DNA of 64,000 bases from Squalus acanthias (lineage: Eukaryota): positions 744,001 through 808,000 of the forward strand of contig JASTWF010000187.1 in NCBI GenBank assembly GCA_030390025.1, given 5' to 3'. The notes beneath the pieces were generated by a model. It did no database searches. It saw only the letters and a list, made by a program, of their open reading frames with translations, and was not told the origin of the DNA. This document shows, piece by piece, positions 27,001 to 54,160 of this stretch. The position numbers were made by a program, and so were the translations under genes. Each line of letters opens with the position of its first letter. Position 1 is the stretch's first letter.

Positions 27001-27270
27001 TACTGTGTCCCTGATACACTGTTTCCCTGATACACTGTGTCCCTGATATACAGTGTCCTGATACACTTTGTCCCTGATACACTTTGTCCCTGATAGACTT
27101 TGTCCCTGATACACTGTGTCCTGATATACTGTGTCCCTGATACACTGTGTCCTGATCCACTGTGTCTTGATACATTGTGTCCTGATACACTGTGTCCCTG
27201 ATACCCTGTGTCCTGATATACTGTGTCCCTGATACACTGTGTCCTGATAAACTGTATCCCTGATACCAGT
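1..27270. repeat. 15-bp satellite array (consensus CTGATAYACTGTGTC, frequent 16-bp variants), ~1,750-1,800 monomers, extends beyond the left edge
   Basis: Continuous tandem periodicity; recurring variant landmarks such as GTTGGAAGGACTG; array ends at ...ctgtatccctgataccagtgtagg near 27270. Confidence 0.99.
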
Positions 27271-27837
27271 GTAGGTCACACAGTCGGTCGTTATTGATGT
27301 TCGCTGCAATGATTTGGATGCCGGGATTTGCTGATCGCATTGTCGGTTCTCATTCACCAGCTTCTCTCTTAAAAAGCTGATCTGAAGCGGGCGGGCCTCA
27401 CATTCTTATGTATCTCTGTCAACTCACTCCTTAATTATCAGCCAAGCGGACTTCTTCTGCAGCTAATTTTATAAATAACTGCCTTAGGGTCACAGACTAT
27501 GCAATGCAATTTGAGAAACTTGTATAATGTGAGGTGTTTGCACTCATCTCCAGACCCAAATCGTGCAGCTATAGTCATCCACATTGTAAATGCAATCACA
27601 TTACCCATCTCCCGCATTCAGTTACATAGACCTAAAGCAATTCATATTACAAGGGATACTTTATTGGTGCAGAGTGAAGGAATAGGTACCGGGAGATGGA
27701 GTAACACACACTGGCATTCTCTTTGACCTTGATAATGTAATTCAATCTTACAGATTCACTCCTCCTGTAAATAGTGAGGAAATTAAGGGATTAATTTACA
27801 GTCCTGATATGAGTCCCTTCTGTTGGTGATGTGGAGG

Positions 27838-27925
27838 GTGTGACGTGGCTCCAGTAGCCGCCTCTATCAGGGAATCAATAGGCGGCGCCTGTAACATCGC
27901 CCCCATCTGCCGGGTATTTAACTGC
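27838..27925 (+). promoter_or_regulatory. Putative VH promoter: CRE/ATF-like TGACGT (27841), E-box CATCTG (27904), TATA-like TATTTAA (27915)
   Basis: Motifs lie about 100-175 bp upstream of the leader ATG. I saw no exact octamer (ATGCAAAT), consistent with octamer-less elasmobranch VH promoters. Confidence 0.5.
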
Positions 27926-28013
27926 CGGTCACTGGGACCGCACTACAACAGTCCGGGAGCGGGTTTGCTCAGTGAGTTCTTGCCAGAACAATTTACCACA
28001 CATTGCCAGAAGG

Positions 28014-28059
28014 ATGAGGTCGGCGATTTCTCTCGGTCTGTTGCTGGCTTTCTTATCTG
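28014..28059 (+). CDS. IgH leader exon (MRSAISLGLLLAFLS-G)
   Basis: ATG at 28014, hydrophobic signal peptide, phase-1 donor G|GTGAGT, 128-bp intron to the V exon. Confidence 0.93.
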
Positions 28060-28187
28060 GTGAGTAGTTTTTATTGTCCTGGTCTCTCACTGTTACTGTC
28101 TCAGTGTTAGTCTCTCTCTGGAATGTTACAGAGTCAGGAATCATTTCACCAGGGTTAATCCTCGGGGTTTTTGATTTTTTTTTACAG

Positions 28188-28553
28188 GTATCCAGTCAGA
28201 TGTCGTGTTGACTCAGCCAAAGGCAGAGACCGGGCATCCCGGAGGCTCCCTGAGACTGACCTGTAAAACCAGCGGGTTCGATCTTGACAGATACTACATG
28301 CATTGGGTCCGATAGGTTCCCGAACAGGGGCTGGAGTGGCTGGTTAGCTATCGCAGTACATCGAACAACGTCTATGCCCCAGCGATTTTGAGCCGATTTA
28401 CTGCATCCAAATACATTTCAGACAGAATCTTCGCGTTGAACATGAAGACCCTGAGGACCGAAGACACCGCCATCTATTACTGTGCAAGAGAAACTATGCG
28501 GCACAGGGTCATGGGCCACTGGGGAGAAGGGACCATGGTGACGGTGGCTGCAG
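28188..28553 (+). pseudogene. IGHV: Pre-joined VH-D-JH exon: (G)[51 protein letters not shown]...[31 protein letters not shown]
   Basis: Acceptor tttacag|; both Ig Cys, FR2 Trp, YYC and J motif WGxG in one frame (366 nt); donor G|GTAAGA; in-frame TAG at 28313-28315; no heptamer-spacer-nonamer between V and J. Confidence 0.96.
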
Positions 28554-30664
28554 GTAAGAAACATGCACTCATTCACTAACTGTTGTCTTTGTGTTTTAAT
28601 TTTATATTTCTGTTTAATTTAATAATTATTTCATTCACTGAAACTTGGGTTCGGTGGATTATGTATTGACATGTTTTGCAACGTTTCATTTGATTCTGCT
28701 GCAAAGGGATCATAGATTTAAACTGTTTCTCCACTGAAAATGTTGTTGAGGGATTGAGCCCCTGATTGATTTGATTTGGTGTTTATCTGCTGAGGAGGCT
28801 GTGTGCCTGGGTTACTTTAAACACCTAACGGTTGTTAAACTGATTAACCTTTCTGCAATTTTTATTCTGCTCTATACGGGATAGAACGATAGACAAAGGG
28901 TAGATTATATCTGAGAGTTATGTTTCATTCTTATTAATATTAAATTGATGAACAATGTCTCTCCTCCATTTGCTCATTAAGTTTCAGTGCAGCAGATGGT
29001 CTGAATGAATTATTCTCGTCCAGTTTTACACAGATCATACTGGAAATTATTTTCAATAAATAGCAGACTATATTTAAAAATGAATTTACGGGCATTCTGT
29101 GAATTACAGGAGTAAAATATAACAGATTATCTGTGTTATTAAATAGCATAGGCTCTGTTACTAACTGCAAACTGCCCGGGTGATTTTTACTTAATAAACA
29201 TATTTTTTCGGGTTACGATTGAGGAGAATATTTCAACTCGAGAGTCCAGCTTTAGTAAACAGGCGGTGTTACAGCCCATCGGTAGTTAGTCAGATTTGAC
29301 CCCAGCCGGATATTGAAATATTTAAAACAATCCACTCCTAAGTCCATAATGTGAACTACACGCTGAGAATACACGGAGATTATGCTATATCAGAAAGTTA
29401 AGATACATGATGAGTTTTAAAAGGTGTAGGTAGCGAACTGGACAGTATTAGAAGTTCGTGATCATTTTTAATTATTCAAATGTGTTTCGATTTAAGTAAA
29501 AATAATATATTTGTCTGATTGTATTTAAGTATTAATATGATGATTAATATTTTAATATTGACGTTTTATCGTGACAATTTAAATAAAAACTTAATATATC
29601 ACAAGTTACCAGTCAGAAACAGGTTAAAAATTTCTAGTAATTAATGTTATTAATAAGGCTGGAGATGACAAATAACACACTGAAATTCAAGCAGATTAAT
29701 TTAATTACACCAGTTCCAGGTGCGGGTGGTTCTGAGGAGGAAGGGCCAGACAGGCTCACAGAATATTTTCAATGATACAGTGTAACATCAGCTAACATGA
29801 GGATTAACTTGGAATATAACATCAGTGCTAATTCATTCAACATAAATGACCACTCAGAATTGCGTTGTATACTGGCCAGGATTACAGTTACTGCAAAATC
29901 TCAAGGGTTGGAGAGAATTTTTAATGAAATCTGAAATTAATCTAGGAAACAATACATTTCTTTCTCAGCTTTGCTCGGCTCGATAACGTGTAGCCGCAGA
30001 TTTTAATGGATTAACTTCGTCTTTCCCTCGATGATTTTAAAGGTTATATTTAATTATAATATTTTACCACATCAGTGGGTAATCGTTTTTCAATGTAACT
30101 GTCTCCTGGTTTGTTAAATTCTTACTCTGCCGCTCAGCCCCGTGTTCCGGGCAGCCAATTACACTGGAATGTGAATTATTTCCAGAGACCTGTTTTCAGG
30201 AAACTTAAATCTTACACGGTTTGCAAGATTGTCGACAGAGAGGGAGAAATTGTTGGATGATGAACAGTTTTTCACATTAATACCAGTTTAATTTCAAAGA
30301 ACGTGCAGAGTTGAGGTGGTCGGAAATTGACAAGAAATAAATTGAAAATCAAACAGCTTGATTGAAATTAACAGATTGAACAGATCTATCTGCCGTGAGC
30401 ACCATTGTTGCACCGTTTGTGTCTGTTCTGTTTCTGTGCGCCTGCTCACAGTGTGAGAATCAGGAGTCCTCCTGACTGGTTGTAAGACTTCTGGTTCGTT
30501 CACCTGTGTTTCAGGGAGTGTAATTTGTCTCAGTTATTTAAGGAACTTGTGTTTGTGGGAAACTTGAACAGTTGACATTGAGGTTGAGGAGGCGTCTCAG
30601 GAATGAGATCAATGACCCAGTTTGTGACATTCAGATGGACCAGTTCAGAAACACTGCAGGGAGA

Positions 30665-32087
30665 CTATGGAAGGAGCTTTAATCAGTTTATAACCCATGC
30701 TGTGCTTTACCCGGAATCTAAACCTTGATACACATGACTCGGAGTGTCTGACAGGGTAGTGTAGAAGGAATTTTACTCGGAATCTAAACCTTGCAATACT
30801 TGACGCGGAGTGTCTGACAGGGCAGTGTAGAGGGAACTTTACTGGGAATCTAAACCTTGCTATATTGACCCGGAGTGTCTGTAAGGACAGTTTACAGGAA
30901 ACTTTACTCGGAATCTAAACCTTGCTATACTTGATCCGGAGTGTCTGCCAGGGCAGTGTAGAGGGAACGTTACTGGGAATCTAAACATTGCTATACTTGA
31001 CGCGGAGTGTCTGATAGGGCAGTGCAGAGGGAACTTTACTCGGAATCTAAACATTGCTATACTTGACCCGGAGTGTCTGACAGGGCAGTGTAGAGGGACG
31101 TTTACTCGGAATCTGAACCTCGCTATACTTGACCCGGAGTGTCTTACAGGGCAGTTTAGAGAGGACATTACTCGGAATCTAAACCTTGCTATATTGACCC
31201 GGAGTGTCTGTAAGGACAGTGTAAAGGAAACTTTACTCGGAATATAAACATTGCTGTACTTGACCCGGAGTGTCTGAAAGGGCAGTGTAGTGGGAACTTT
31301 ACTTGGAATCTAAACATTCCTATTCTTGACCCGGAGTGTCTGACAGGGCAGTGTAGAGGGAAGTTTACCATGAAGCTAAACCTTGCTATACTTGACCTGG
31401 AGTGTTTGACAGGGCAGTGTAGAGGGAACTTTACTGGGATTCTAAACCTTGCTATACTTGACCCGGAGTGTCTGACAGGGCAATGTAAAGGGAATTCTCT
31501 CGGAATCTAAACCTTGCTATACTTGACCCGAATTTCTGACAGGGCAGTGTAGAGGGAACTTTACTCGGAATCTAAACCTTGCTATACTTGACCCGAAGTG
31601 TCTGACAGGGCAGTGTAGAGGGAACTTTACTTGGAATCCAATCCTTGCTCTACTTGACCCGGACTGTCTGACAGAGCAGTGTAGAAAGAACTTTACTCGG
31701 AATCAAAAACTTGATATACTTGACCCGGACTGTCTGACAGGGCAGTGTAGAAAGAACTTTACTCGGAATCAAAAACTTGATGTACTTGACCCGGAGTGTC
31801 TGACAGGGCAGTGCAGAAAGAAATTTACTCGGAATCTAAACATTGCTATACTTGACCCGGAGTGTCTGACAGGGCAGTGTAGAAAGAACTTTGCTCGGAA
31901 TCTAATCCTTGTTATACTTGACCCGGAGTGCTTGACAGGGCAGTGTAGAGGGAACTTTACTGGGAATCTAAACCTTGTTATACTTGACCCGGAGTGTCTG
32001 ACAGGGCAGTGTAGAGGGAACTTTACTCGGAATCTAATCCTTGTTATACTTGACCCGAAGTGTCTGGCAGGGCAGTGTAGTGGGATA
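30665..32087 (+). repeat. 66-bp minisatellite (~21 copies) in the J-C intron
   Basis: Unit CTTGACCCGGAGTGTCTGACAGGGCAGTGTAGAGGGAACTTTACTCGGAATCTAAACCTTGCTATA; seen as 22-aa repeats in the ORF track; related to the 67-bp family. Confidence 0.95.
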
Positions 32088-32321
32088 TTTAATTTCAATT
32101 CAACCGCATTGATTTACACCGCATGACAGAGTAAATCTCCCTTTGCTTTGCCCAATCGTATCTTTCCTGTATCTGACCTGAGAGTATTTGTTGCAACAGT
32201 ATTGAAGGAACCTTAATCGGCATATAACTATCATGATGCAGAGATGCCGGCGTTGGACTGGGGTGGACAAAAATGAGAAGTCGCACAACACCAGGTTATA
32301 GTCCAACAGATTTATTTAAAA

Positions 32322-32361
32322 TTACAAGCTTTCGGAGCTATCCTGCCCCTTCTTCAGGTAA
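32322..32361 (-). ncRNA. Minimal type I hammerhead ribozyme motif (left arm copy)
   Basis: Reverse complement of the 33292-33331 motif. Confidence 0.72.
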
Positions 32362-33291
32362 AGTTACACTGAATGAATCTACAAAAGTTCATAGAATATA
32401 AACACAGATACTACAGAGATACAATCTTTCCTTATATCAAAGAAACACCAAGAGCACAGCCAAGACAATGAGATGTGTCCCAGGGGGTCCAACGTGTCAA
32501 ATCCTGCTGACTGCAGCAGATCTCTCTCCATAACCCTTCCTCTCTCCGTCTTTTTAGGGGTTTGTTTTTTGTGTTTATTTTTTTGTGTTTGTTTTTTAAA
32601 AAACTGGAAAGACAGACAACGATGTCAAGTCACGTTCTGTAGCGTGACATGAACCCGATATCCCTATTGAGGCCGTCCTCATGAGTGCGCAACTTGGCTA
32701 TCAGTTTCTGCTCGATGATTTTGCGTTGTCGTGTGTCTCGAAGGCCGCCTTGGAGAACGCTAACCCGCAGATCCGAGGCTGAATGCCCTTGACTGCTGAA
32801 GTGTTCCCCGAATGGGAGGCAGGATAGTTGCCTCCCAGTCGGGGAACACTTCAGCAGTCAAGGGCATTCAGCCTCGGATCTGCGGGTTAGCGTTCTCCAA
32901 GGCGGCCTTCGAGATACACGACAACGCAAAATCATCGAGCAGAAACTGATAGCCAAGTTCCGCACTCATGAGGACGGCCTCAATAGGGATATCGGGTTCA
33001 TGTCACGCTACAGAACGTGACTTGACATCGTTGTCTGTCTTTCCAGTATTTTAAAAAACAAACACTAAAAAACAAACACAAAAAACAAACCCCTTAAAAA
33101 GACGGAGAGAGAGGAAGGGATATGGAGAGAGATCTGCTGCAGTCAGCAGGATTTGACACGTTGGACCCCCTGGAACACATCTCATTGTCTTGGCTGTGCT
33201 CTTGGTGTGTCTTTGATGTAAGGAAAGATTGTATCTCTGTAGTATCTGTGTTTATATTCTATGAACTTTTGTAGATTCACTCAGTGTAACT

Positions 33292-33331
33292 TTACCTGAA
33301 GAAGGGGCAGGATAGCTCCGAAAGCTTGTAA
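33292..33331 (+). ncRNA. Minimal type I hammerhead ribozyme motif
   Basis: TTAC-CTGAAGA-A-GGGGC(AGGATA)GCTCC-GAA-AGCT-T-GTAA: stem I TTAC/GTAA, CUGANGA core, stem II, GAAA, palindromic stem III AGCT. Confidence 0.75.
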
Positions 33332-33692
33332 TTTTAAATAAATCTGTTGGACTATAACCTGGTGTTGTGCGACTTCTCATTTTTGGCATATAACTAATCA
33401 GACGCGAGTGCTCGAGCCAGATATATAAAGATAGACCCATTTCTTCAGTGAAACAACCGCGCATTAATTGAGTTTAATCGGCTTTCAAAAAAATCTGCCC
33501 CATTTATAATGAATTTAAACATTTAAATATTTTGAGTATCAGATAATGATTGAATGAGATTGGCCTGATCCTGAGCTCACATTCAGAACAATCAGTTTCA
33601 GGAAGTGACTGTAACGCTGCAGCAAGCAGTGCCTGTTCTGATCTGATGGGAGACTGGAAGTTATTTTGACTTTTTAAATAGACATTGTAATG

Positions 33693-33977
33693 CTTTACTC
33701 TGTATCTAACCCATGCTGTACCTGCCCTGGGAGTGTTTGATGGGGCAGTGTAGAGGGAGCTTTACTCTGTATCTAACCCATGCTGTACCTGCCCTGGGAG
33801 TGTTTGATGGGGCAGTGTAGAGGGAGCTATACTCTGTATCTAACCCGTGCTGTACCTGCCCTGGGAGTGTTTGCTGGGACAGTGTTGAGGGAGCTTTACT
33901 CTGTATCTAACCCATGCTGTACCTGCCCTGGGAGTGTTTGATGGGACAGTGTAGAGGGAGCTTTACCCTCTATCTGA
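33693..33977 (+). repeat. 67-bp minisatellite (~4 copies)
   Basis: Unit CTTTACTCTGTATCTAACCCATGCTGTACCTGCCCTGGGAGTGTTTGATGGGGCAGTGTAGAGGGAG; period 67 (33693 to 33760). Confidence 0.95.
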
Positions 33978-35082: not shown

Positions 35083-35382
35083 CGACACTGTCTCCTTCCA
35101 CCCTCTACGCCCTGCACTCCTGCTGTCAACAACCCAACACTGACGGCTCCATCACCTTCGGCTGTTTGGCGATGGACTACTTCCCCGAAATCACCAGCCT
35201 TTCCTGGAAGAAAGATAAAGAGCCGCTCACCACTGGATTGAAGACTTATCCGGCAGTGCTCAACAAGATGGGAACCTACACCCTGAGCAGCCAGTTAACC
35301 ATCAACGAGTCAGAGGTGGGGAGCAGCACAATCTACTGCGTGGTTCGACAAAGTGGGGCGGACTGGAGCATCACAATGCCAG
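35083..35382 (+). CDS. IGHM: Cmu1 exon ([36 protein letters not shown]...[19 protein letters not shown])
   Basis: Acceptor ttcccag|, 300 nt, phase 1/1, C1-set Cys/Trp pattern, closely resembles shark Cmu1 as recalled. Confidence 0.93.
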
Positions 35383-35394
35383 GTCTGTGTTGTG

Positions 35395-35500
35395 GGATAC
35401 AGGGGAAAACTGTGAGAAGCAGGGATATTATGTTCAACTTGTACAGAAAATTGGTTAGTCCAGACTTAGAGTATTGTGAACAGTTCTGGGCTCCAGGTCA
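35395..35500 (+). mobile_element. CR1 ORF2 fragment ([19 protein letters not shown])
   Basis: Matches LYRALVRPHLEYCVQFWSP in the CR1 ORFs at 55426-56364 and 61899-62228. Confidence 0.75.
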
Positions 35501-36540
35501 CACTTAGAATATTGTGCTCAGTCCTTGTCACCATATCACATTTGGTGTACTGTGTACAGTCCTGGTCTCCATATCACACTTAGATTACAGTGCACATTCC
35601 TATCTCCATATCACATTTACTGTACTGTGCACAATTCTGGTCTCCATATCACACCTGGAATACTGTGCACAGTCCTGATCTCCGTATCACACTTAGTGTA
35701 CTGTGCTCAGTCCTAGTCTCCATGTCAGACTTAGAGTACAGTGCAGAGTCCTGGCCTCCATATCATACTTAAAATACTGTGCAGGTTCCTGGTCTCCATA
35801 TCACACTTAGAATACTGTGCAGTATCCTGGTCTCCATATCACACTTAGAATACTGTGCAGAGTCCTGGTCTCCATATCACAATTAGAATACTGTGCAGGT
35901 TCCTGGTCTCCATATCACACTTAGAATACTGTGCAGAGTCCTGGTCTCCATATCACACTTAGAATACTGTGCAGAGTCCTGGTCTCCATATAACACTTAG
36001 AATACTGTGCAGGTTCCTGGTCTCCATATCACACTTAGAATAATGTGCAGAGTCCTGGTATCCATATCACACTTAGAATACTGTGCAGTGTCCTGGTCTC
36101 CATATCACACTTAGAATACTGTGCAGAGTGCTGGTCTCCATATCACACTTAGAATAATGTGCAGAGTCCTGGTCTCCATAACACACTTAGAATACTGTGC
36201 AGTGTCCTGGTCTCCATATCACACTAGAATACTGTGCAGAGTCCTGGTCTCCATATCACACTTAGAATACTGTGCAGAGTCCTGGTCCATATCACACTTA
36301 GAATACTGTGCAGAGTCCTGGTCTCCATATCACACTTAGAATACTGTGCAGGTTCCTGGTCTCCATATCACACTTAGAATACTGTGCAGAGTCCTGGTCC
36401 ATATCACACTTAGAATACTGTGCAGTGTCCTGGTCTCCATTTCACACTTAGAATACTGTGCAGACCCCTGGTGTCCAAATCACACTTAGAATATTGTGCA
36501 GAGTCCTTGTCTCCGTATCACACTTAGAGTACTGTGCACA
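35500..36540 (+). repeat. 38-bp minisatellite (~27 copies) derived from the CR1 HLEYCxQFWSPY coding motif
   Basis: Unit GTCCTGGTCTCCATATCACACTTAGAATACTGTGCAGA; homogeneous centre, diverged edges. Confidence 0.93.
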
Positions 36541-36663: not shown

Positions 36664-36980
36664 GTCCTAACGGGACCCCATCCGTCCAACTGTTATCCTC
36701 ACGGTGAGTTCCAGGGACCAAATCACCAGCAGCAGACATGCAACCGTCGTGTGTTCAATCATGGATTTCCGTCCAAAGTCACTAACCGTGAATTGGCTGA
36801 AGAATGGACGACTCATGCATTCGGGCTTCGTCACCTCTCCCGTCTGTGAAGTGAACGGGACCTTCTCGGCGACCAGTCTGCTGACAGTGCCCGCCGGGGA
36901 ATGGTTCACCGGCTCGGTCTACACCTGCCAGGTCACTCATGAAGGGGTTACCGAAATCAAAAACATCACCAGATCTCAGG
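36664..36980 (+). pseudogene. IGHM: Cmu2 exon, frameshifted near its 5' end
   Basis: Domain frame [28 protein letters not shown]...[15 protein letters not shown]...ITRSQ; acceptor ttttaag|, donor G|GTAAGA; length 317 nt (3n-1); phase-1 entry reaches TGA at 36705. Confidence 0.9.
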
Positions 36981-38425: not shown

Positions 38426-38442
38426 GACTATTGCTGCGGTAA

Positions 38443-39906
38443 TGGCCCAGAAATTAATGACGGAGCATTCGTGCGGGGGTAAGGCTTCCCCGCAATATCT
38501 CACTGCGCGCCTGCCTTTTCATTCCGAGCTCGCACGAACTTGATTTTCTAGACAGCAGCTGTGCAGTGCTTCCGTATCCCAGAGGCGCAGTTAATTCGTG
38601 CGAGCTGTGGGATCACGTGATTCAGTTAGAGCCAATGGCAGCACACCATCTTTCATTCATAGTTTTCACAGCAACTGCTGTGAAAGCTATGAATCTATAC
38701 CCCCTCAAAAGAACAGCTAAACCTCAACTAAATTTTAAAAAAAACCATCACATTAATAAAATAAGTATAGTTAAATAAATTAACCACTTTAAACAAAAAA
38801 TTAAACTTTTGAAAAAATTTAAAATCTTTTAAAAAGTTATAAAAATAAACTTACCTTTCTTTAAAGTCTCTAAAAAAGATATACCTGTTGAAAAAAATTC
38901 AAAATAATACTTAATTAACTACTTACCTTGTTAAAAGAGGGTCTTACGCTTCCTTTCTTTATGTGCAAAATCTTCCATGCTTACCTGCGCGTTCAACGCA
39001 CTAAGTGCACTGCGTGCGCGCAGCCTGTAGCGCGCACGCGGTTCACTTAGGAACCGACCCCTTTTGAAATCACCAAGTGCCAGTTTTCAGCGCATGCGCA
39101 GTGCATGCAGAAAACCGGTAATTGCAGACAGAATACGCGAGAGTACACAGTGCGTACTCTCGCGTAGAGACACTGGTCCAAATATTAGTCTTGCTACGCG
39201 AGAGTATGCACTTTGTACTCTCGCGTATTCTGTCTCCAATTGCCGGTTTTCTGCATGCACTGCGCATGCGCTGAAAACCGGCACTTGGTGAACTCAAAAG
39301 GGGGCGGTTCCTAGGTGAACCGCGTGTGCGCTACAGGCTGCGCGCACGCAGTGCACTTAGTGCTTTGAACGCGCAGGTAAGCATGGAAGATTTTGCACAC
39401 AAAGAAAGGAGGTATAAGACCCTCTTTTAACAAGGTAAGTAGTTAATTAAGTATTATTTTGAATTTTTTTCAACAGGTATATCTTTTTTAGAGACTTTAA
39501 AGAAAGGTAAGTTTATTTTTATAACTTTTTAAAAGATTTTAAATTTTTTCAAAAATTTAATTTTTTGTTTAAAGTGGTTAATTTATTTAACTATACTTAT
39601 TTTATTAATGTGATGTTTTTTTTTAAAATTTAATTGAGGTTTAGCTGTTCTTTTGGGGGGTATAGATTCATAGCTTTCACTGAAAACTATGAATGAAAGA
39701 TGGTGTGCTGCCATTGGCTGTAACTGAATCACGTGATCCCACAGCTCGCACGAATTAACTGCGCCTGTGGGATACGGAAGCACTGCACAGCTGCTGTCTA
39801 GAAAATCAAGTTCGTGCGAGCTCGGAATGAAAAGGCAGGCACGCAGTGAGATTACGCGGGGAAGCCTTACCCCCGCACGAAGGCTCCGTCATTAATTTCT
39901 TGGCCA
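38443..39906. mobile_element. 1.46-kb foldback non-autonomous DNA transposon, PIF/Harbinger-related
   Basis: Arms 38443-39167 and 39194-39906 are near-perfect reverse complements; termini TGGCCCAGAAATT...AATTTCTTGGCCA; central motif shared with 52520-52620 and 63925-63975. Confidence 0.85.
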
Positions 39907-40603
39907 CTAATGTTTGGGCCAATATTTCATTCTGACTCTCTGACCAGACATGATAATCGTTCACTACTGACAGAAATTAACAAACTACCTCACGCCGGAA
40001 TTACAAACTATTCCCCACCACAAAAGACCCCTTGGAGCTCCATTCTCCCGACCTATCACCTCTCCTCTGACGGAGGATGCAACTGGTTCCTTCACATTTT
40101 AATCGCCACAAAAATCGCAACAAGACACCAGAAAATTAACTTTTTTCCTGTTGCATCTAAAATCCTGGATTTTGTTTGAAGCTCGTTTTGAACCAGTGTA
40201 ATTTCCGTGTCGAGTTTTTGACCCTGGGGGCGGCGGCATTATAATGAGCGGAGATGTGTTCGAGCTCAAGGATCTATAGACGGGCGTAAGTGAGCAAGGG
40301 ATTTGGGGAATAGCGGTATTCAGTGCGTAACACAATTGTGCCCGAATTTATACATTTTGTTACGCTGGTTATTTGCTTCACAGCCCATTACAGGAGGCTC
40401 TGGGAGCAAATACACAGGAAATGTTAAAGTGTCTCCCGGAATCGTTGCCAATTCCTTATCCTTCAAATAACGATGGTGTTTAAGCAACAGCGAGATGTTG
40501 ATATCTCAAAGGAGATGTATTCTCCTTGTGACATTAATGGCTGATCACTGGCGTCCTGATTCTGAAGATGAAGATTTGCTTGACTTTCATTTCTGTTTCA
40601 CAG

Positions 40604-40912
40604 ATCGTTCCTCCAGCAGCGATCCAGTGATTACTCTTCGGCAACCGTCACTAGAACAGGTCTTACTGGAGGCGACGGTGACCTTAACCTGCGTCGTGCC
40701 TGATGCTCCTTATGGAGTCACGGTGTCCTGGACCCGAGGAAAGGAGATGCTGATATCAGAGATTGCGGTTAAACCCGGAGAGGATCCCAACAGCGTGATC
40801 AGCAAGTTAAACATCTCGACACAAGCCTGGCTGAGTGGGGATAAGTTCACCTGCGTGGTGAGCCATCAGCATATGCCGACTGATGTAAGAGCTTCCATCC
40901 ACAAGGAAACAG
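40604..40912 (+). CDS. IGHM: Cmu3 exon ([30 protein letters not shown]...[28 protein letters not shown])
   Basis: Acceptor ttcacag|, donor G|GTGAGC, 309 nt in frame, C1-set motifs. Confidence 0.95.
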
Positions 40913-41407: not shown

Positions 41408-41754
41408 CTAAAGATCCGCGGCAACCGTCCGTGTCTGTCCTCCTGCCCTCGGCAGAAGAAGTCTTCGCTCAGAGGTCCGTCGCCCTCACCTGCTTAGTGA
41501 GAGGTTTCTACCCTCGAGAGATCTTCGTCAAGTGGACCGTCAATGATAAGCCGGTGAATTCCAGCAACTACAGGAACACCGAGGTGTTGGCGGAGAACGG
41601 CAGCAGTTCCTTCTTCATCTACAGCCTGTTATCCATTGCAGCAGAAGAGTGGGCCAGCGGCGCTTCTTACTCCTGTGTGGTGGGACATGAAACGATCCCC
41701 TTGAAGATCATCACCAGAACGGTCAATAAATCCAGCGGTAAACAATGTTTGTGA
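41408..41754 (+). CDS. IGHM: Cmu4 exon plus truncated secretory tail (...[15 protein letters not shown]); internal TM donor after 41737
   Basis: Acceptor cctgcag|; [17 protein letters not shown]...YSCVVGHE; G|GTAAA donor gives a 330-nt exon; ancestral tail [16 protein letters not shown] persists out of frame to 41798. Confidence 0.95.
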
Positions 41755-41826
41755 ACATTTCCTTTGTACTGATGGACTCCGTCAATTCTTATCAATGAGA
41801 AACTCTCTATTACATTTAATTTCTTA

Positions 41827-44375: not shown

Positions 44376-44599
44376 CAGAGTGAAGCTCTCTCACTACAGA
44401 TTTCCTCAAAGTGACTTCAGCAAATTTCCTCCTGCTGGGGGAATCTGAAAAATCCCATTTCAACAAACCAACGCTGCACATTTACATCTCGGTTTCCCTG
44501 TTTCTCCTGTTGTCCATTCCTTCAGAATTGGGGACAGTTTTAAGTTGCAGCATCGCAAACACTGAAGAGAGGGCCACACAGGAACACGAACTGTATCTC

Positions 44600-45990
44600 G
44601 CAATTCCCCGCCAGAGAGAGGGGAAAGAGCAATTGTTAACCCACCGTACCGCCGACTCTCCCACCAGAGAGAGGATAAGGAGCAAATGATTACCCACTGT
44701 ACCTCGCAATCCTCCACCAGAGAGAGGGGAAAGGGCAATTGTTAACCCTCTGTACCCAACAATCTCCCACCAGAGAGAGGGGAAAGGGCAATTGTTAACC
44801 CACTGTACCCCACAATCTCCCACCAGAGAGAGGGGAAAGGGCAACTGTTAACCCACTGTACCCCACAATCTCCCAGCAGAGAGAGGGGAAAGGGCAATTG
44901 TTAACCCACTGTACCCCACAATCACCCACCAGAGAGAGAAGAAAGGGCAATTGTTAACCCACTGTACCCCACAATCTCCCACCAGAGAGAGGGGAAAGGG
45001 CAACTGTTAACCCACTGTACCCCACAATCACCCACCAGAGAGAGAAGAAAGGGCAATTGTTAACCGACTGTACCCCCAGTCCCCCACCAGAGAGAGGGGA
45101 AAGGGCAATTGTTAACCGACTGTACCCCCAGTCCCCCACCAGAGAGAGGGGAAAGGGCAATTGTTAACCCACTGTACCCGCCCTCACCCACCAGAGAGAG
45201 GGGAAAGGGCAATTGTTAACCCACTGTACCTCCCACTCCCCCACCAGAGAGAGGGGAAAGGGCAATTGTTAACCCACTGTACCCCCACTCCCCCACCAGA
45301 GAGAGGGGGAAGGGCAATTGTTAACCCACTAGACCCCCACTCCCCCACCAGAGAGAGGGGAAAGGGCAATTGTTAACCCACTATACCTCCCAATCCCCCA
45401 CCAGAGAGAGGGGAAAGGGCAATTGTTAACTCACTGTACCCGCACTCCCCACCAGAGAGAGGGGAAAGGGCAATTGTTAACCCACTAGACCCCCACTCCC
45501 CCACCAGAGAGAGGGGAAAGGGCAATTGTTAACACCCTGTACCCCCACTCCCCACCAGAGAGAGGGGAAAGGGCAATTGTTAACCCACTAGACCCCCACT
45601 CCCCCACCAGAGAGAGGGGAAAGGGCAATTGTTAACCCACTAGACCCGCACTCCCCCACCAGGGAGAGGGGAAAGGGCAATTGTTAACCCACTAGATCCA
45701 CACTCCCCCACTAGAGAGAGGGGAAAGGGCAATTGTTAACCCACTAGACCCGCACTCCCCCACGAGAGAGAGGAAAGGGCAATTGTTAACCCTCTGTACC
45801 CCCACTCCCCCACCAGAGAGAGGGGAAAGAGCAATTGTTAATCCACTGTACCGCCACTCCATCACCAGTGACCTTGGGGGAAAGGCCAATTATGAACCCA
45901 CTGTACCCTCCACTCCCCCATTAGAGAGCTGGGGAAAGGGCAATTGTTAATCTGCTGTACCTCCCATTTCCCCACCCGAGAGAGAGGGGG
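44600..45990. repeat. 53-54-bp minisatellite (~25 copies) in the Cmu4-TM1 intron
   Basis: Unit CCACCAGAGAGAGGGGAAAGGGCAATTGTTAACCCACTGTACCCCCACTCCC-like; period 53 (44771 to 44824). Confidence 0.95.
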
Positions 45991-47081: not shown

Positions 47082-47209
47082 ATTCCTCAGAACACATCTG
47101 GATTGAAGACTTTGAGGACGAGAGCGAAAACATCAGGACAACCGCTTCCACATTCATCATCCTGTTCTTCCTCAGCATGTCCTACAGCGCTGCCGTCACT
47201 CTGGTGAAG
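47082..47209 (+). CDS. IGHM: IgM TM1 exon (DSSEHIWIEDFEDESENIRTTASTFIILFFLSMSYSAAVTLVK)
   Basis: Acceptor cccgtag|, acidic spacer, conserved antigen-receptor TM motif (TASTF..LF.LS..Y...VTL.K), phase-0 donor |GTGAGA. Confidence 0.93.
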
Positions 47210-47349
47210 GTGAGAAGATTCAATCCACTCACACTTCGACCTGACTGAAGCGGTTTGACAAATCTCTAAAAGTTTCATTGATAAAAACCCTGAGCTAAAT
47301 GTCCCAGACCACTAAAACTCTGCTACATTCTTTTATCCCTCTTTCACAG

Positions 47350-47403
47350 GCCAGGAGATGGTTGAATTTTGGACGCCGTGGATTTTCCTCATCTTTTTAT
47401 TAA
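47350..47403 (+). CDS. IGHM: Putative TM2 exon (ARRWLNFGRRGFSSSFY*)
   Basis: Strong polypyrimidine acceptor ctttcacag| 140 bp after TM1; reading frame runs to TAA at 47401. Confidence 0.55.
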   Translation, partial: ARRWLNFGRRGFSSSFY

Positions 47404-48269
47404 CGTCGCTGTGTTCTGAATATAAAATATGTCCTCTTGGTGAATCTCAACGTAAAATGCCCCCAGTTAAAAGATCCGAATCTATAGCTGAGAAAAATAC
47501 AAACGGGATTTCCGTCTTTCTGTTTGAAATGTGTGAGTTAATCGTGGCTATAATGTAAATGTATCTTAGAGTTGTTTGAATATTTCACGTGTAAATAAGT
47601 CACTTTTCTCATTCCTAATTCACAATTGTTCCCTACCCTTTATGCGGAGCCCCTGTTTTCTCTCTCTGGTGTCTGTTGCAGATGTACAGATAGCTGGCAG
47701 CTCAGACCGACCGTGTTCAGTTCTCAATGTGACGCTCAGTTATTATATTCACTTTGTGTTACCTTTTCAAACCGTTCTCTGTAAATCCTACTCTGTGAAA
47801 TTGTTCATAAATCTGGAATGACAAATTGACTAACTTAGACTTTGCTGATTTCCTTTCTCCGAGGTCCTCCACACCACTCTATTTTCCCTCTCGCACTTTC
47901 TTTATTTCCCCGACAGGTATCTTTCATCCGTCCTGTCTGGGTTGTCATTGAACTCAAGTCTCTTCGGTTAAGGAGCCGCTGCGTCACCCAGTGTCCCATC
48001 AGAGAAAATACACCTTTACCCAGACATTTTTATGTCAAGCCCGAAAGGTGCAATGACTGCACAGTGACCAAGTAGTCTCCTCTAATATTATGACCTGTAG
48101 AGTCACATGTCAGGTTCTATTAACGAGCAGGTCGCTGCTCCATCACAGCCTGATACAGTGCAGTACATGGCACAGTAAATCTCCCACTAAACGCCCCATC
48201 AAACACTCCCAGGGCAGGTAGAGCACGGGTCAGATACAGAGTAAAGCTCGTGAACACTGGCCCATCAAA

Positions 48270-48452
48270 AATGATTTAATTTATTGGTCTGCAATTGTAA
48301 AGTACACATGCTTTGTTTTCCATCTATATATGCTCTGGCGATTCTGTATCCAATTTACTTCACCTGAGGAAGGAGCGATAGCTCCGAAAGCTTGTGATTT
48401 CAAATAAAACTGTTGGACTATAACCTGGTGTTGTGCGACCTCTCAATTTTGT
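48270..48452 (+). mobile_element. Penelope-like 3' end fragment
   Basis: Shares GCTCCGAAAGCTTGT...TGTTGGACTATAACCTGGTGTTGTGCGAC with 33315-33373; flanked by direct repeat CCATCAAA (48262, 48453). Confidence 0.8.
48360..48397 (+). ncRNA. Minimal type I hammerhead ribozyme motif
   Basis: TCAC-CTGAGGA-A-GGAGC(GATA)GCTCC-GAA-AGCT-T-GTGA; perfect stems I and II; covaries with the 33292 copy. Confidence 0.78.
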
Positions 48453-50374
48453 CCATCAAACACTCCCAGGGCAGGTACAGCACGGTTAGATACAGAGTAA
48501 AGCTCCCTCTAGACTGTCCCATCACACATTCCCAGGGCAGGTCCAGCACGGTTAGATACGGAGTAAAGCTCCCTCTACACTGTCCCATCTCACATTTCCA
48601 GGGCAGGTGCAGCACGGGTTAGATACAGAGTAAATCTCCCTCTACACTGTCCCATCAAACACTCCCAGGGCAGGTACAGCACGGTTAGATACAGAGTAAA
48701 GCTCCCTCTACACTGTCCCATCTCACATTTCCAGGGCAGGTACAGCAAGGGTTAGATACAGAGTAAATCTCCCTCTACACTGTACCATCAAACACTCCCA
48801 GGGCAAGTACAGCACGGTTTAGATATAAAGTAAATCTCCCTCTACACTGCCCATCAAACACTCCCAGGGCAGGTGCAGCACGGGTCAGATACAGAGTAAA
48901 GCTCCCTCTACACTGTCCAATCAAACACTCCCAGGGCAGGTACAGCACGGGTTAGATACAGAGTAAAGCTCCATCTACACTGTCCCATCAAACACTCACA
49001 GGGCAGGTACAGCACGGGTTAGATACAGAGTAAAGCTCCCTCTACACCGTCCAATCAAACACTCCCAGGGCAGGAACAGCACGGGTTAGATACAGAATAA
49101 AGTTCCCTCTACACTGTCCCATTAAACACTCCCAGGGCAGGTACAGCAAGGTTAGATACAGAGTAAAGCTCCCTCTACACTGTCCCATCTCACATTTCCA
49201 GGGCAGGTACAGCAAGGGTTAGATACAGAGCAAATCTCCCTCTACACTGTACCATCAAACACTCCCAGGGCAAGTACAGCACGGTTTAGATATAAAGTAA
49301 ATCTCCCTCTACACTGCCCATCAAACACTCCCAGGGCAGGTGCAGCACGGGTCAGATACAGAGTAAAGCTCCCTCTACACTGTCCAATCAAACACTCCCA
49401 GGGCAGGTACAGCACGGGTTAGATACAGAGTAAAGCTCCATGTACACTGTCCCATCAAACACTCACAGGGCAGGTACAGCATGGGTTAGATACAGAGTAA
49501 AGCTCCCTCTACACCGTGCAATCAAACACTCCCAGGGCAGGTACAGCACGGGTTAGATACAGAGTAAAGTTCCCTCTACACTGTCCCATCAAACACTCCC
49601 AGGGCAGATACAGCACGGTATAGATACAGAGTAAAACTCCCTCTACAGTGTCCCATCAAACACTCCCAGGGCAGGTACAGCATGGGTTAGATACAGAGTA
49701 AAGCTCCCTCTACACTGTCCCATCAAACACTCCCAGGGCAGGTACAGCACTGGTTAAATACAGAGTAAAGTTCACTCTACACTGTCCCCATCAAACACTT
49801 CCAGGGCAGGTACAGCACGAGTTAGATACAGAGTAAAGCTCCCTCTACACTTTCCCATCAAACAGTCCCAGGCCAGGTATAGTACGGTTCGATATCTGAC
49901 ACAGACACGCCTGGGAGCTCAACACCTGGGAGTGATTCTCAGAGCCTTGTGCCAATCAGACACACAAGCACTACCTCGACCGTTTTCTGTTATACACATA
50001 GACTCTCCATTTTTCAGTAGTACACACAAAGTGTCTCCCGCTTTTAGACCGTATTTGAGACAGATGAGAGGAGGGATCACATCGTGTCCGCGGGTATTTT
50101 TGTGTCTTCTGGGCAAATGGGATATAGGTTGTGTGATAGACGGGCAAAATGCTATTCTGTTTCAATATAATTTTAGTTTTGTTCAGGCCACATTTGCGAG
50201 TGGAACCCTCCTCACGGGCCGGGCTCTATAGAATGTATTTTTTATTGGAATAACCTCTTTAAAGGAGTCGCGAGTCCAAATGTTTTACAAAGACCACGGA
50301 GAAGAGTAATCACTTCCAAAACTTCTCCAATCTCAGCAACACCCATTAACCCTGACCCTCTGTCTCCTGATTCC

Positions 50375-51770
50375 TGATTACCTTTCTCCCTTATCTCCTC
50401 CATTCCCTCTGACACCATCTACCTGATCTCATTGAACCTCACCCCAGGGATCCTTTCTCCCTGCTCTCCTCCAGTCCTTCTGATACCATCTACCTGATCT
50501 CATTGAACATCACCCCAGGGATTCTTTCTCCCTGCTCTCCTCCATTACCTCTGATACCATCTACCTGAACTCATTGATCATCACCCCAGGGATTCTTCCT
50601 CCCTGCTCTCCTCCAGTCCCTCTGATACCATCTACCGGAACTCATTGATCATCACTCCAGGGATCCTTTCTCCCTGCTCACCTCCATTCCCACTTGTACC
50701 ATCTCCCTCACCTCATTGAATATCACCCCAGAAATCCTTTCTCCCTGCTCTGTACCATGCCCCCTGATATCATCTCCCTGAATTCACTGATCATCTCCCC
50801 AGGGATACTTTCTCTCGGCTCTCCTCCATTCCCACTGACACCATCTACCAGAACTCACTGATCATCACCCCAGGGATCCTTTCTCCCTGATCTCCTCCAT
50901 CACCCAGAGAGTGGTGAATCTATGGAATTCTCTTCCACAGAAGGTTGTTGAGGCCAGTTCGCTAAATATATTCAAAAGGGAGTTAGATATAACACTCACA
51001 ACTAAGGGGATCAAGGGGTATGGCGAGAAAGCAGGAATGGGGTACTGAGGTAGCATGTTCAGCCATGAACGCATTGAATGGCGGTGCAGGCTCGAAGGAC
51101 CGAATGGTCTACTCCTGCACCTATTTTCTATGTTTCTATGTTTCTATTCCCTCTGATACCAAATACCTGAACTCACGGATCATCACCCCAGGAATCCTTT
51201 CTCCCTGCTCACCTCCTTTCCCTCTGATACCATCTACCTGAACTCACTGAACGTCACCCAAGGGTTCCTTTCTCCCTGCTCTCCTCCATTCCCTCTCATA
51301 CCATCTACCTGAACTCATTGATCATCACCCCAGGGATCCTTTCTCCCTGCTCTCCTCCATTCCCACTTGTACCATCTCCCTCAACTCACTGAATATCACC
51401 CCATGGATCCTTTATCCCTGCTCTGTACCATGCCCCCTGATACCATCTCCCTGAACTCACTGGTCATCACCCCAGGGATCCTTTCTCCCTGATCTCCTCT
51501 ATTCCCTCTGATACCATCTACCTGAACTCACTGAACATCACCCCAGGGATCCTTTCTCCCTGCTCTCCTCCATTCCCTCTCATACCATCTACCTGAACTC
51601 ATTGATCATCACCCCAGGGATCCTTTCTCCCTGCTCTCCTCCATTCCGTCTGATACCATCTACCTGAACTCAGTTAACATCACCCCAGAGATCCTTTCCC
51701 TCTGCTTTCCTCCATTCCCACTGACACTATCGACCTGAACTAACTGAACATCACCCCAGGGATCCATTCT
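50375..51770. repeat. 71-bp pyrimidine-rich minisatellite (~16 copies) interrupted by a CR1 3' end
   Basis: Unit CATCACCCCAGGGATCCTTTCTCCCTGCTCTCCTCCATTCCCTCTGATACCATCTACCTGAACTCATTGAT; period 71 (50440 to 50511). Confidence 0.93.
50900..51145 (+). mobile_element. 5'-truncated young CR1 3' end
   Basis: Near-identical reverse complement of about 56505-56747; (TTCTATGT)n tail. Confidence 0.93.
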
Positions 51771-52504: not shown

Positions 52505-53705
52505 GCACCCGAAAATTAGACCTAATACGCGAGAGTACGCACTGTGCACTCTCGCGTATTAGGTCTCGAATTGCCGGTTTCCTGCATGCACTGCGCATGC
52601 GCGGGAAACCGGCACTTCGTGTGGCTTCACCTGAAGGTATCTCCGTGGAATCGCGTGCGCAGGAGATTCTGCGCGTGCGTCAAGAACTTGGATATTTTAC
52701 TGAATGGTGGTAGTGTGTGTAAGCTCCTAGCAATTACACATGTAAAAAGCAGGAGTAAGCCATTTTCGATGGCTCCGGAGACAGCAGGAGGAATAAATCT
52801 TTTAGCAGTGGGATTACTTAAGTGAGCTTTTGTAAATCGGAAAGCCAGCAAAGTCTTAGGTAAGTTTGCAATTTAAAAAAAAGTTTAAAAACGGGTTTTG
52901 ACCATTTGGAGTAGTATAGCAACTGTGGGTGTGTACAAGGCATATTGATTAAGGTTTCTATCATAAATGTGAAAATGAATGTTTAAAAATGAACTATTTA
53001 CATTTCAAAAAGTTTTAAAGATGAAAATGATCGTCAATTATATTCCTCTAAGTAAGTATGTATGTATGTATGTATGTATGTATGAAAATGTTACAGTTCT
53101 GGAAAATCATCTAGGGCCATGAGGCGGGTAGACGTGTTCCCAATCCGATAGTGCACGTTTCCCACCATAGCCAGACCTGATTTTACAGCCACTCACTTTA
53201 CTAAAGTTACTTTAACAACTATTCCCATTTTTTCATTACAACTTTCTGTTTAAAGAGGAAGCCTGTGAGGGAGAAAGATGCCCTTTCACAATCAATTCCT
53301 GTTCCTCTGTGAGATTTTGTATCAGAGAATTTTAGACGCCAGGCGACAAAACAGACGGAGGAACCAAGCCCGTTTCCTCGTGAGAAGGAGAAACTACTAC
53401 CCACCAAATAGAGTGTACAGGGAGAGGCTGTCATTTGAGATGCTGTCGGAGGAGTTGTGTGTGAGGAGGCTGCGCTTCAGTAAAGAGTCAATGGCCGAAT
53501 CTGTGACATGTTAAAGGATCACCTTCAAACACGCTCGAAGAGCCGCACTGCATTATCAGTGAGCATGAAGGTAACCACAGCACTGAACTTCTTTGCAAGT
53601 GGGACTTTTCAGGCAAGCACCGGTGACATTTTCAACATATCCAAGAATGCTGCGAGGGCCAGCATTCACCAGGTCACAGAAGCCATTTTCCGTAGGGCTT
53701 CAGAG
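52505..53705 (+). mobile_element. Truncated PIF/Harbinger DNA transposon: left end plus N-terminal HARBI1-like transposase (53330-53705, frameshift near 53508)
   Basis: RVYRERLSFEMLSEELCVRRLRFSKE / TALSVSMKVTTALNFFASGTFQASTGDIFNISK..A.ASIHQVTEAI; palindromic subterminal motifs. Confidence 0.8.
53057..53084. repeat. (TATG)7 microsatellite
   Basis: Read directly. Confidence 0.95.
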
Positions 53706-53706
53706 A

Positions 53707-54160
53707 TCGTATTTGAATGGATTCACCACATTTTAACTCCGTGTCTCCCATTCATTCTGATTTTGCTGTTCAATGCTCTGACCGTCAGACACATTCTAGC
53801 GGCCAGCAGAGCCCGCAGGAGACTCCGGGCCCACAGCAATGGGGAGAATCAGAGTGACCCAGAGATGGAGAGCCGGAGAAAGTCCATCGTCTTACTCTTC
53901 TGTGTCTCGGGCAATTTCATCCTGTTACATGTGTTATTACTGAGAACTTTCCTCGCTGTCCAGATTGCGAAAGTTACTTATTTCACATGTTCGATTTCAA
54001 TGAATCAAATTTTATTCTGGAGGAAAGCGGATATATGCTTCAGTTTTTGAGTTCCTGCATCAACCCGTTTATTTATGCAGGGACCCAGAGTAAATTCAGA
54101 GAGGAGTTAAATAATGGGGTGAAATATCCACTGAGTCTCATTGTTAAATTATTGAAATGA
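53707..54160 (+). pseudogene. 3' half (TM5-TM7 and C-tail) of a class A GPCR, GPR139/142-like
   Basis: ILTPCLPFILILLFNALTVRHIL...DPEMESRRKSIVLLF; after a frameshift near 53990, GYMLQFLSSCINPFIYAGTQSKFREEL...* containing NPxxY; stop 54158-54160. Confidence 0.82.

Follow-up and report, generated by a model that had tools for sequence, protein, structure and literature searches.

A probable germline-joined, decayed IgM heavy-chain cluster in Squalus acanthias

How did V, D, and J come to lie fused within genomic DNA of Squalus acanthias, and was this join inherited or made in a lymphocyte? The question is raised by one exon in a 64,000-nucleotide stretch of assembly GCA_030390025.1 (contig JASTWF010000187.1, positions 744,001 to 808,000), which we call the window and from whose first letter all positions are counted. 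A first-pass annotation had described this exon as an in-frame, germline-joined VDJ and had proposed for it a hard-wired antibody specificity. The exon and the elements around it are as follows.

27841 to 27846, + strand: TGACGT, a CRE-like word upstream of the leader
27915 to 27921, + strand: TATA-like TATTTAA, some 100 nt upstream of the ATG
28014 to 28059, + strand: leader exon (MRSAISLGLLLAFLS-G), resembling the horn shark VH leader
28060 to 28187, + strand: leader intron, GT..AG, 128 nt
28188 to 28553, + strand: single VDJ exon, 366 nt, with an AG acceptor, a GT donor, and phase 1 at both ends
28188 to 28491, + strand: VH segment, a V-set match with 72% identity to Heterodontus VH
28313 to 28315, + strand: in-frame TAG in FR2, where paralogues have CAG (Gln)
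28492 to 28517, + strand: inter-segment joint, 26 nt, from the V end to the resumed match with a paralogue J
28518 to 28553, + strand: JH core (W-G-E-G-T-M-V-T-V), placed by comparison with a paralogue J and followed by a GT donor

The V domain is open through YYCAR into J except for one stop, the TAG at codon 58 of the precursor, and the earlier description of an in-frame join is correct in this respect. A Pfam V-set match spans residues 6 to 116 of the 118 residues encoded by the exon (E 1.4e-13). Because this match covers V through J, the exon represents one domain rather than a chance succession of segments. Beside Heterodontus VH, the remaining top V matches in a protein search are shark VH sequences, and the first 40 residues, when searched against the PDB, likewise returned VH-type sequence. 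Upstream of the leader, a CRE-like motif of the kind that has been given a role in shark VH promoters is present, and no octamer was found in 27267-28014.

No heptamer-like word occurs within 28015-29900, and a two-strand scan for recombination signal sequences (RSSs) found no site near the VDJ exon. The claim that V is fused to J without an RSS or spacer is thereby confirmed. Seven RSS-like matches from the same scan, each with three mismatches and far from the exon, were set aside as chance. Thus V, D, and J are fused, RSSs and spacers are excised, and introns are kept, which is the anatomy of a joined IgH cluster.

A somatic-looking joint in inherited DNA could also be accounted for by a retrocopy, or by conversion of a germline cluster on a cDNA template derived from lymphocyte mRNA. 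We consider this origin very improbable. The leader intron, the 6.5-kb intron between J and CH1, and all C introns, which a processed copy would lack, are present, and differences from the paralogues continue into the introns that flank the exon on either side. The first-pass annotation had dismissed a retrocopy on the evidence of the introns, and we agree.

Paralogue sequences were taken from contigs of public sequencing runs (Logan contigs) rather than from a whole-genome assembly. Such contigs are described as the product of Minia3 with SPAdes-type simplification (PMC12424806). Four of 19 listed runs contributed, which represent at most three samples; runs X1 and X3 derive from one sample, possibly the source animal. 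Runs were left out where the word share fell below 0.2, run X5 was covered to 55%, a filter takes out part of the records, and the shares of sampled words in the two best holder runs are only 0.48 and 0.40. None of the runs listed as holders is an RNA run, which says nothing about expression.

In V paralogues from runs X3, X5, and X6, one extra C and then a CACAGCG heptamer follow the position equivalent to 28491, and in runs X1 and X6 a CACTGTG heptamer precedes J. These V and J heptamers indicate that the same family includes split clusters in the same species, and the joined copy is therefore recognized as a RAG-type coding joint. Its V end has been trimmed by 1 nt relative to the heptamer border of the paralogues, and its J RSS is absent. 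The joint itself (61.5% G+C) occurs once in the window, and its last 12 letters match the paralogue J at 4 of 12 positions. The joint would comprise D remnants and N/P letters, and possibly a variant 5' end of J. Up to 26 nt thus lie outside V and the matched J, and part of this stretch must be D.

The CDR3 has 12 residues (36 nt from TGT to TGG). In nurse shark, the CDR3 averages 11.3-11.6 codons and the corresponding stretch of VDJ ranges from 24 to 78 nt, as described in PMC2435157, and by comparison with this average the CDR3 length is ordinary. The first-pass annotation had called the CDR3 fixed and basic. It is indeed basic, but modestly so, with a net charge of +2 over 12 residues when His is not counted, compared to 0 to -2 for seven other junctions among the proteins compared; "fixed" is an interpretation rather than an observation. 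CDR3s of other shark proteins end in SMGY and TLGH, and the final residues MGH may therefore be encoded by J rather than by the junction.

This CDR3 is absent among 17 V-domain protein matches (20 candidates), and comparison of the CDR3-J region with longer proteins gave no candidate, which is weak evidence. Metagenome contigs, a collection not expected to contain shark DNA, yielded no V-domain relative among 169 pattern matches and no match to the exact junction. We found no paper on this locus in the literature searched, whose reach excludes most journals that publish on shark immunoglobulins. Among the proteins compared, gene models named for Rhincodon, Mustelus, Scyliorhinus, and Pristiophorus (P0004, P0016, P0023, and P0026) carry V, CDR3, and J in one chain. 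These four models may be additional germline-joined clusters, or their annotation may splice into the flank of J, and in P0016 an AVGN-like stretch, judged by eye, resembles read-through of a J RSS.

What the fused exon could encode depends also on the remainder of the cluster, where the following elements were located.

35083 to 35382, + strand: Cmu1 exon, intact, 80% identity to the complete shark IgM P0020
36664 to 36980, + strand: Cmu2 exon, 5' end damaged, no usable in-frame acceptor
40604 to 40912, + strand: Cmu3 exon, open, without the N-terminal Cys of 4/4 reference IgM and without one conserved sequon
41408 to 41798, + strand: Cmu4 and secretory tail; Cmu4 open, 87% identity to P0020, without one conserved sequon
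47082 to 47209, + strand: TM1 exon, open, with Arg where 2/3 membrane-form references have Trp
47350 to 47403, + strand: probable TM2 exon, which reads ARRWLNFGRRGFSSSFY* where 3/3 membrane-form references end in VK

Pfam returns one V-set and four C1-set matches on the locus, and CH1 through CH4 are 76-87% identical to P0020 and 71-81% identical to Heterodontus mu. A protein search with CH1 gave seven matches among 261 candidates. Judged by this similarity, the locus is a cartilaginous-fish IgM heavy-chain minilocus with a recognizable secretory tail and TM1.

Several of its exons are damaged. The nearest Cmu2 acceptor (36664) produces a 317-nt exon that is out of frame, upstream acceptors that are in frame run into TAA at 36668, and the only in-frame downstream AGs, at 36852 and 36888, lie deep inside the domain. 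Both sequons lost from Cmu3 and Cmu4 are present in 4/4 references. The secretory tail is frameshifted (KSSGKQCL*, with TGA at 41752-41754); the old tail sits in another frame, with Tyr at the position of the penultimate Cys, which is reported to be a conserved residue with a critical role in multimerization (PMC8692893). A search of 47201-50000 for an exon ending in VK and a stop found none. Lesions thus run from FR2 to TM2 across 19 kb. At least five defects are present, of which the FR2 stop is one; those in the C region were absent from the first-pass annotation. Provided that the assembly is correct, the cluster is a multi-lesion pseudogene that would produce no normal secreted or membrane mu chain. 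Both C-region frameshifts lie on or close to short base runs and may be artifacts of the assembly. The two domain cysteines persist in CH1, CH3, and CH4, and the C domains have 7-10 broken invariant columns, compared to 2-7 for P0020. Because the C cores keep their cysteines and have only slightly more broken invariant columns, the decay is not very old.

The surroundings of the cluster are rich in repeats. Positions 4-27266 of the window are occupied by a 27-kb satellite (15-nt unit, approximately 1794 copies), whose end lies about 750 nt 5' of the ATG; the paralogue contigs cover the promoter up to its edge. It contains 799 perfect CACTGTG words, the RSS heptamer as read on the other strand, versus 5 in the rest of the window, and lacks nonamers. 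A CACTGTG-rich satellite is an unusual neighbor for an Ig cluster, though the association is probably a coincidence. Near-perfect palindromic insertions, foldback- or MITE-like in form, lie in the J-CH1 intron (32268-33385; arms of 279 and 271 nt, 97-98%) and in the CH2-CH3 intron (38440-39909; arms of 474 and 229 nt, 95-96%). Tandem arrays with units of 38-106 nt are found in the introns and downstream (30705-32085, 33692-33975, 35464-36538, 44590-45984, 48450-49894, and 50381-51770). Farther along, at 53484-54160, are two overlapping open frames, which by eye resemble a piece of a Harbinger-type transposase running into a fragment of a 7-TM receptor (CINPFIY motif); these frames gave no Pfam match at E 0.1.

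Whether the joint is inherited was examined by comparing the window with the contigs. Among 15 long paralogue pieces, differences from the window amount to 4.6-13.6% over the leader to the J-proximal intron. Pieces from organism A differ by 8.2-9.3% in the promoter and by 10.9-14.6% in the distal intron, and one organism B piece differs by 4.9% in the distal intron. Divergence over V-J does not exceed that of the flanks, and there is accordingly no divergence peak over V-J.

Other contigs match the window itself. In run X5, which comes from a sample and a study different from those of the best holder, contigs are identical to the distal-intron flank at 29261-29463 and 29495-29668, with no other letters at these positions. 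Exact flanks are also present in X1 and X3, the pair from one sample and perhaps from the source animal, and approximately 750 nt of flank match exactly. For the exact-match contigs at 27382-27781 and 29261-29668, depth in X1 is about 3.3 times that in X3, and for paralogue contigs the ratio is about twofold. None of the 32 pieces listed, of 1393, bridges the junction, nor does the listing give a joint at this position, and the contigs attest presence rather than absence.

Between 27896 and 28771, 28 sites are listed among the best 40 of approximately 397 difference rows. At 19 of these 28, the majority letter is missing from at least one organism A contig. This suggests, but does not prove, inheritance of window-type letters, though the comparison gives departures from the majority letter rather than the letter carried. 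Nine listed letters from the same best 40 rows, including the stop, occur in no contig of the four runs, and all nine lie within this interval. A capture-recapture (Chao) estimate predicts about 4 unseen sites from dropout, versus the 9 observed, and a mild excess of unseen letters over dropout therefore remains. Furthermore, X1 and X3 disagree at 14 of the 28 sites despite representing one sample, which indicates that the contigs drop alleles in a patchy manner.

These unseen letters are also what could be expected if the VDJ exon came from a read of a split cluster in one B (or T) lymphocyte, with the stop and the private letters as marks of a hypermutated, non-productive rearrangement. We judge this origin unlikely. 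The nine letters are confined to the zone of hypermutation while the flanks match exactly, and in X3 there are contigs without the majority letters at 28301-28303, none of which carries the stop. WRC/GYW is the AID hypermutation hot-spot motif. Three of the seven unseen C/G sites fall in such hot spots, but this share is not significantly above the background of 23% (P 0.20). Likewise, the patchy loss of alleles between two runs of one sample and the lack of a divergence peak over V-J both count against a somatic allele, and whatever the origin of the joint, the lesions of the C region mark the cluster as a pseudogene. Shark B cells are described as carrying in-frame VDJ with stops, and non-productive VDJ as being mutated (PMC2435157). 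The same source describes a B cell as rearranging 1-3 clusters, from which lymphocyte reads would be expected to form a small minority per locus.

Somatic hypermutation reaches over 1-2 kb. The lesions described above are spread over 19 kb, beyond this reach, and therefore fit decay in the germ line. Joined IgH clusters are reported to be common in sharks and skates (PMC4279169, PMC5192425, PMC6795676, and PMC2193156), and for nurse shark PMC2435157 states that lymphocyte rearrangement of pseudogene clusters was not seen by Southern blot. Given that joined clusters are common, that a B cell rearranges few clusters, and that no rearrangement of pseudogene clusters was seen, prior expectation favors the germline. 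One point against this reading is that up to 26 nt of the joint are unassigned, compared to the little N addition in germline light-chain joints. Taken together, inheritance of the junction is the likelier reading, as an interpretation rather than an observation. The first-pass label "germline-joined" is thus sound as regards a V(D)J joint in genomic DNA and holds as the likelier reading as regards the germline.

We therefore favor a germline-joined IgM pseudogene of the horn shark and skate kind as the probable identity of the locus. The locus would be one among many shark IgM heavy-chain miniloci, in which the recombination signals of V, D, and J would have been cleaved by RAG in a cell of the germ line. 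The V-D, D-D, and D-J spacers would have been removed, and the coding ends trimmed and joined in frame. The fused VDJ would then have been inherited with its own promoter, introns, and C exons, and the cluster would have decayed along its whole length after joining. RAG joining in the germ line is the mechanism that has been argued for nurse shark light chains (PMC2193156).

The first-pass annotation had gone further and proposed that the hard-wired specificity was probably functional until the FR2 stop appeared. This proposal finds no support. Among the best 40 of approximately 397 difference rows, 10 of 11 changed codons in the V exon are replacements or a stop and only one is silent, a share not significantly different from the neutral quarter (P 0.20). 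On this comparison, the V codon changes give no sign of purifying selection, and the stop is accompanied by other defects. An in-frame join has a one-in-three chance of arising by itself.

A functional product can be imagined in another form. In this scenario, the locus would encode a germline-joined IgM like IgM1gj of nurse shark, in which CH2 is skipped to give VDJ-CH1-CH3-CH4 with a short tail, and the stop would be a recent null allele or a haplotype error. CH1 spliced to CH3 stays in frame to the end of CH4, the three domains retain their cysteines along with 80-87% identity to P0020, the shifted tail regains a penultimate Cys, and IgM1gj is itself described as germline-joined and without Cmu2 (PMC4279169 and PMC5192425). 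Nevertheless, we hold this scenario to be improbable. Decay of CH2 does not significantly exceed that of the remaining C domains (7/52 versus 13/171 broken invariant columns; P 0.26), loss of the Cys at the start of CH3 leaves no hinge-like Cys, both conserved sequons are gone, TM2 is altered, and the V codon changes are nearly all replacements or the stop. It is just as doubtful that other individuals carry a stop-free form, which would be a germline-encoded, CH2-skipped, IgG-shaped neonatal IgM with three C domains and a short tail that bears a cysteine. Such a form would be IgM1gj-like and, in another shark lineage, either of independent origin or still mid-way, with its CH2 exon not yet lost. 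Should the stop prove private and the skipping of CH2 real, the locus would show how an IgM1gj-type antibody evolves.

The preferred reading, a decayed germline-joined IgM cluster, belongs to an arrangement long familiar from sharks and rays and has several known counterparts. Germline-joined IgM VDJ clusters of horn shark and skate were reportedly described by Kokubu et al. in 1988. As in the locus described here, the joined IgM genes of horn shark (Heterodontus) and skate have a joined VDJ in an otherwise complete V-D-D-J-C minilocus beside split paralogues of the same VH family, whereas the present locus belongs to another shark lineage and has another CDR3 and several C-region lesions. Nurse shark is described as lacking canonical germline-joined IgM, and horn shark and skate as having many joined four-domain IgM clusters (PMC5192425). 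For the joined H genes of horn shark, expression was reportedly not detected (PMC2193156 and PMC2435157).

The first-pass annotation had named IgM1gj as the precedent. This choice is apt in that joined IgH clusters do exist in the lineage, but the closest match for the join is found in horn shark and skate. IgM1gj, which we compared by published description rather than by sequence, likewise has a pre-joined, in-frame VDJ on a mu-type gene (PMC4279169, PMC5192425, and PMC6795676), and the unusable Cmu2 of the present locus would, if skipped, give the same layout of three C domains. In contrast, IgM1gj is described as intact, abundant in neonates, and devoid of Cmu2, whereas here Cmu2 is damaged, V carries a stop, and the tail and TM2 are altered. 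The TAG at 28313-28315 interrupts the VDJ and sets the locus apart from the IgM1gj subclass.

Somatic VDJ of shark B cells, including those in frame with stops, have the same joint anatomy and CDR3 length (PMC2435157), but a somatic allele belongs to a single clone and is hypermutated around V only, whereas in the present cluster the defects reach CH2, the tail, and TM2. A further parallel is offered by the NS4 (kappa) light chains of nurse shark, where joined and split genes occur side by side, RSSs are fully excised, and two of six joined genes are pseudogenes (PMC2193156). The NS4 joints are those of a light chain with little N addition (same source), compared to up to 26 unassigned nt in the present joint.

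Finally, if the allele were somatic after all, it would call for caution when Ig loci are annotated in blood- or spleen-derived assemblies. Germline-joined shark Ig genes have been known since the late 1980s, and a specialist would find little surprise in another. As the probable remnant of an inherited join, the locus adds one more decayed, datable case of RAG at work in shark germ cells.
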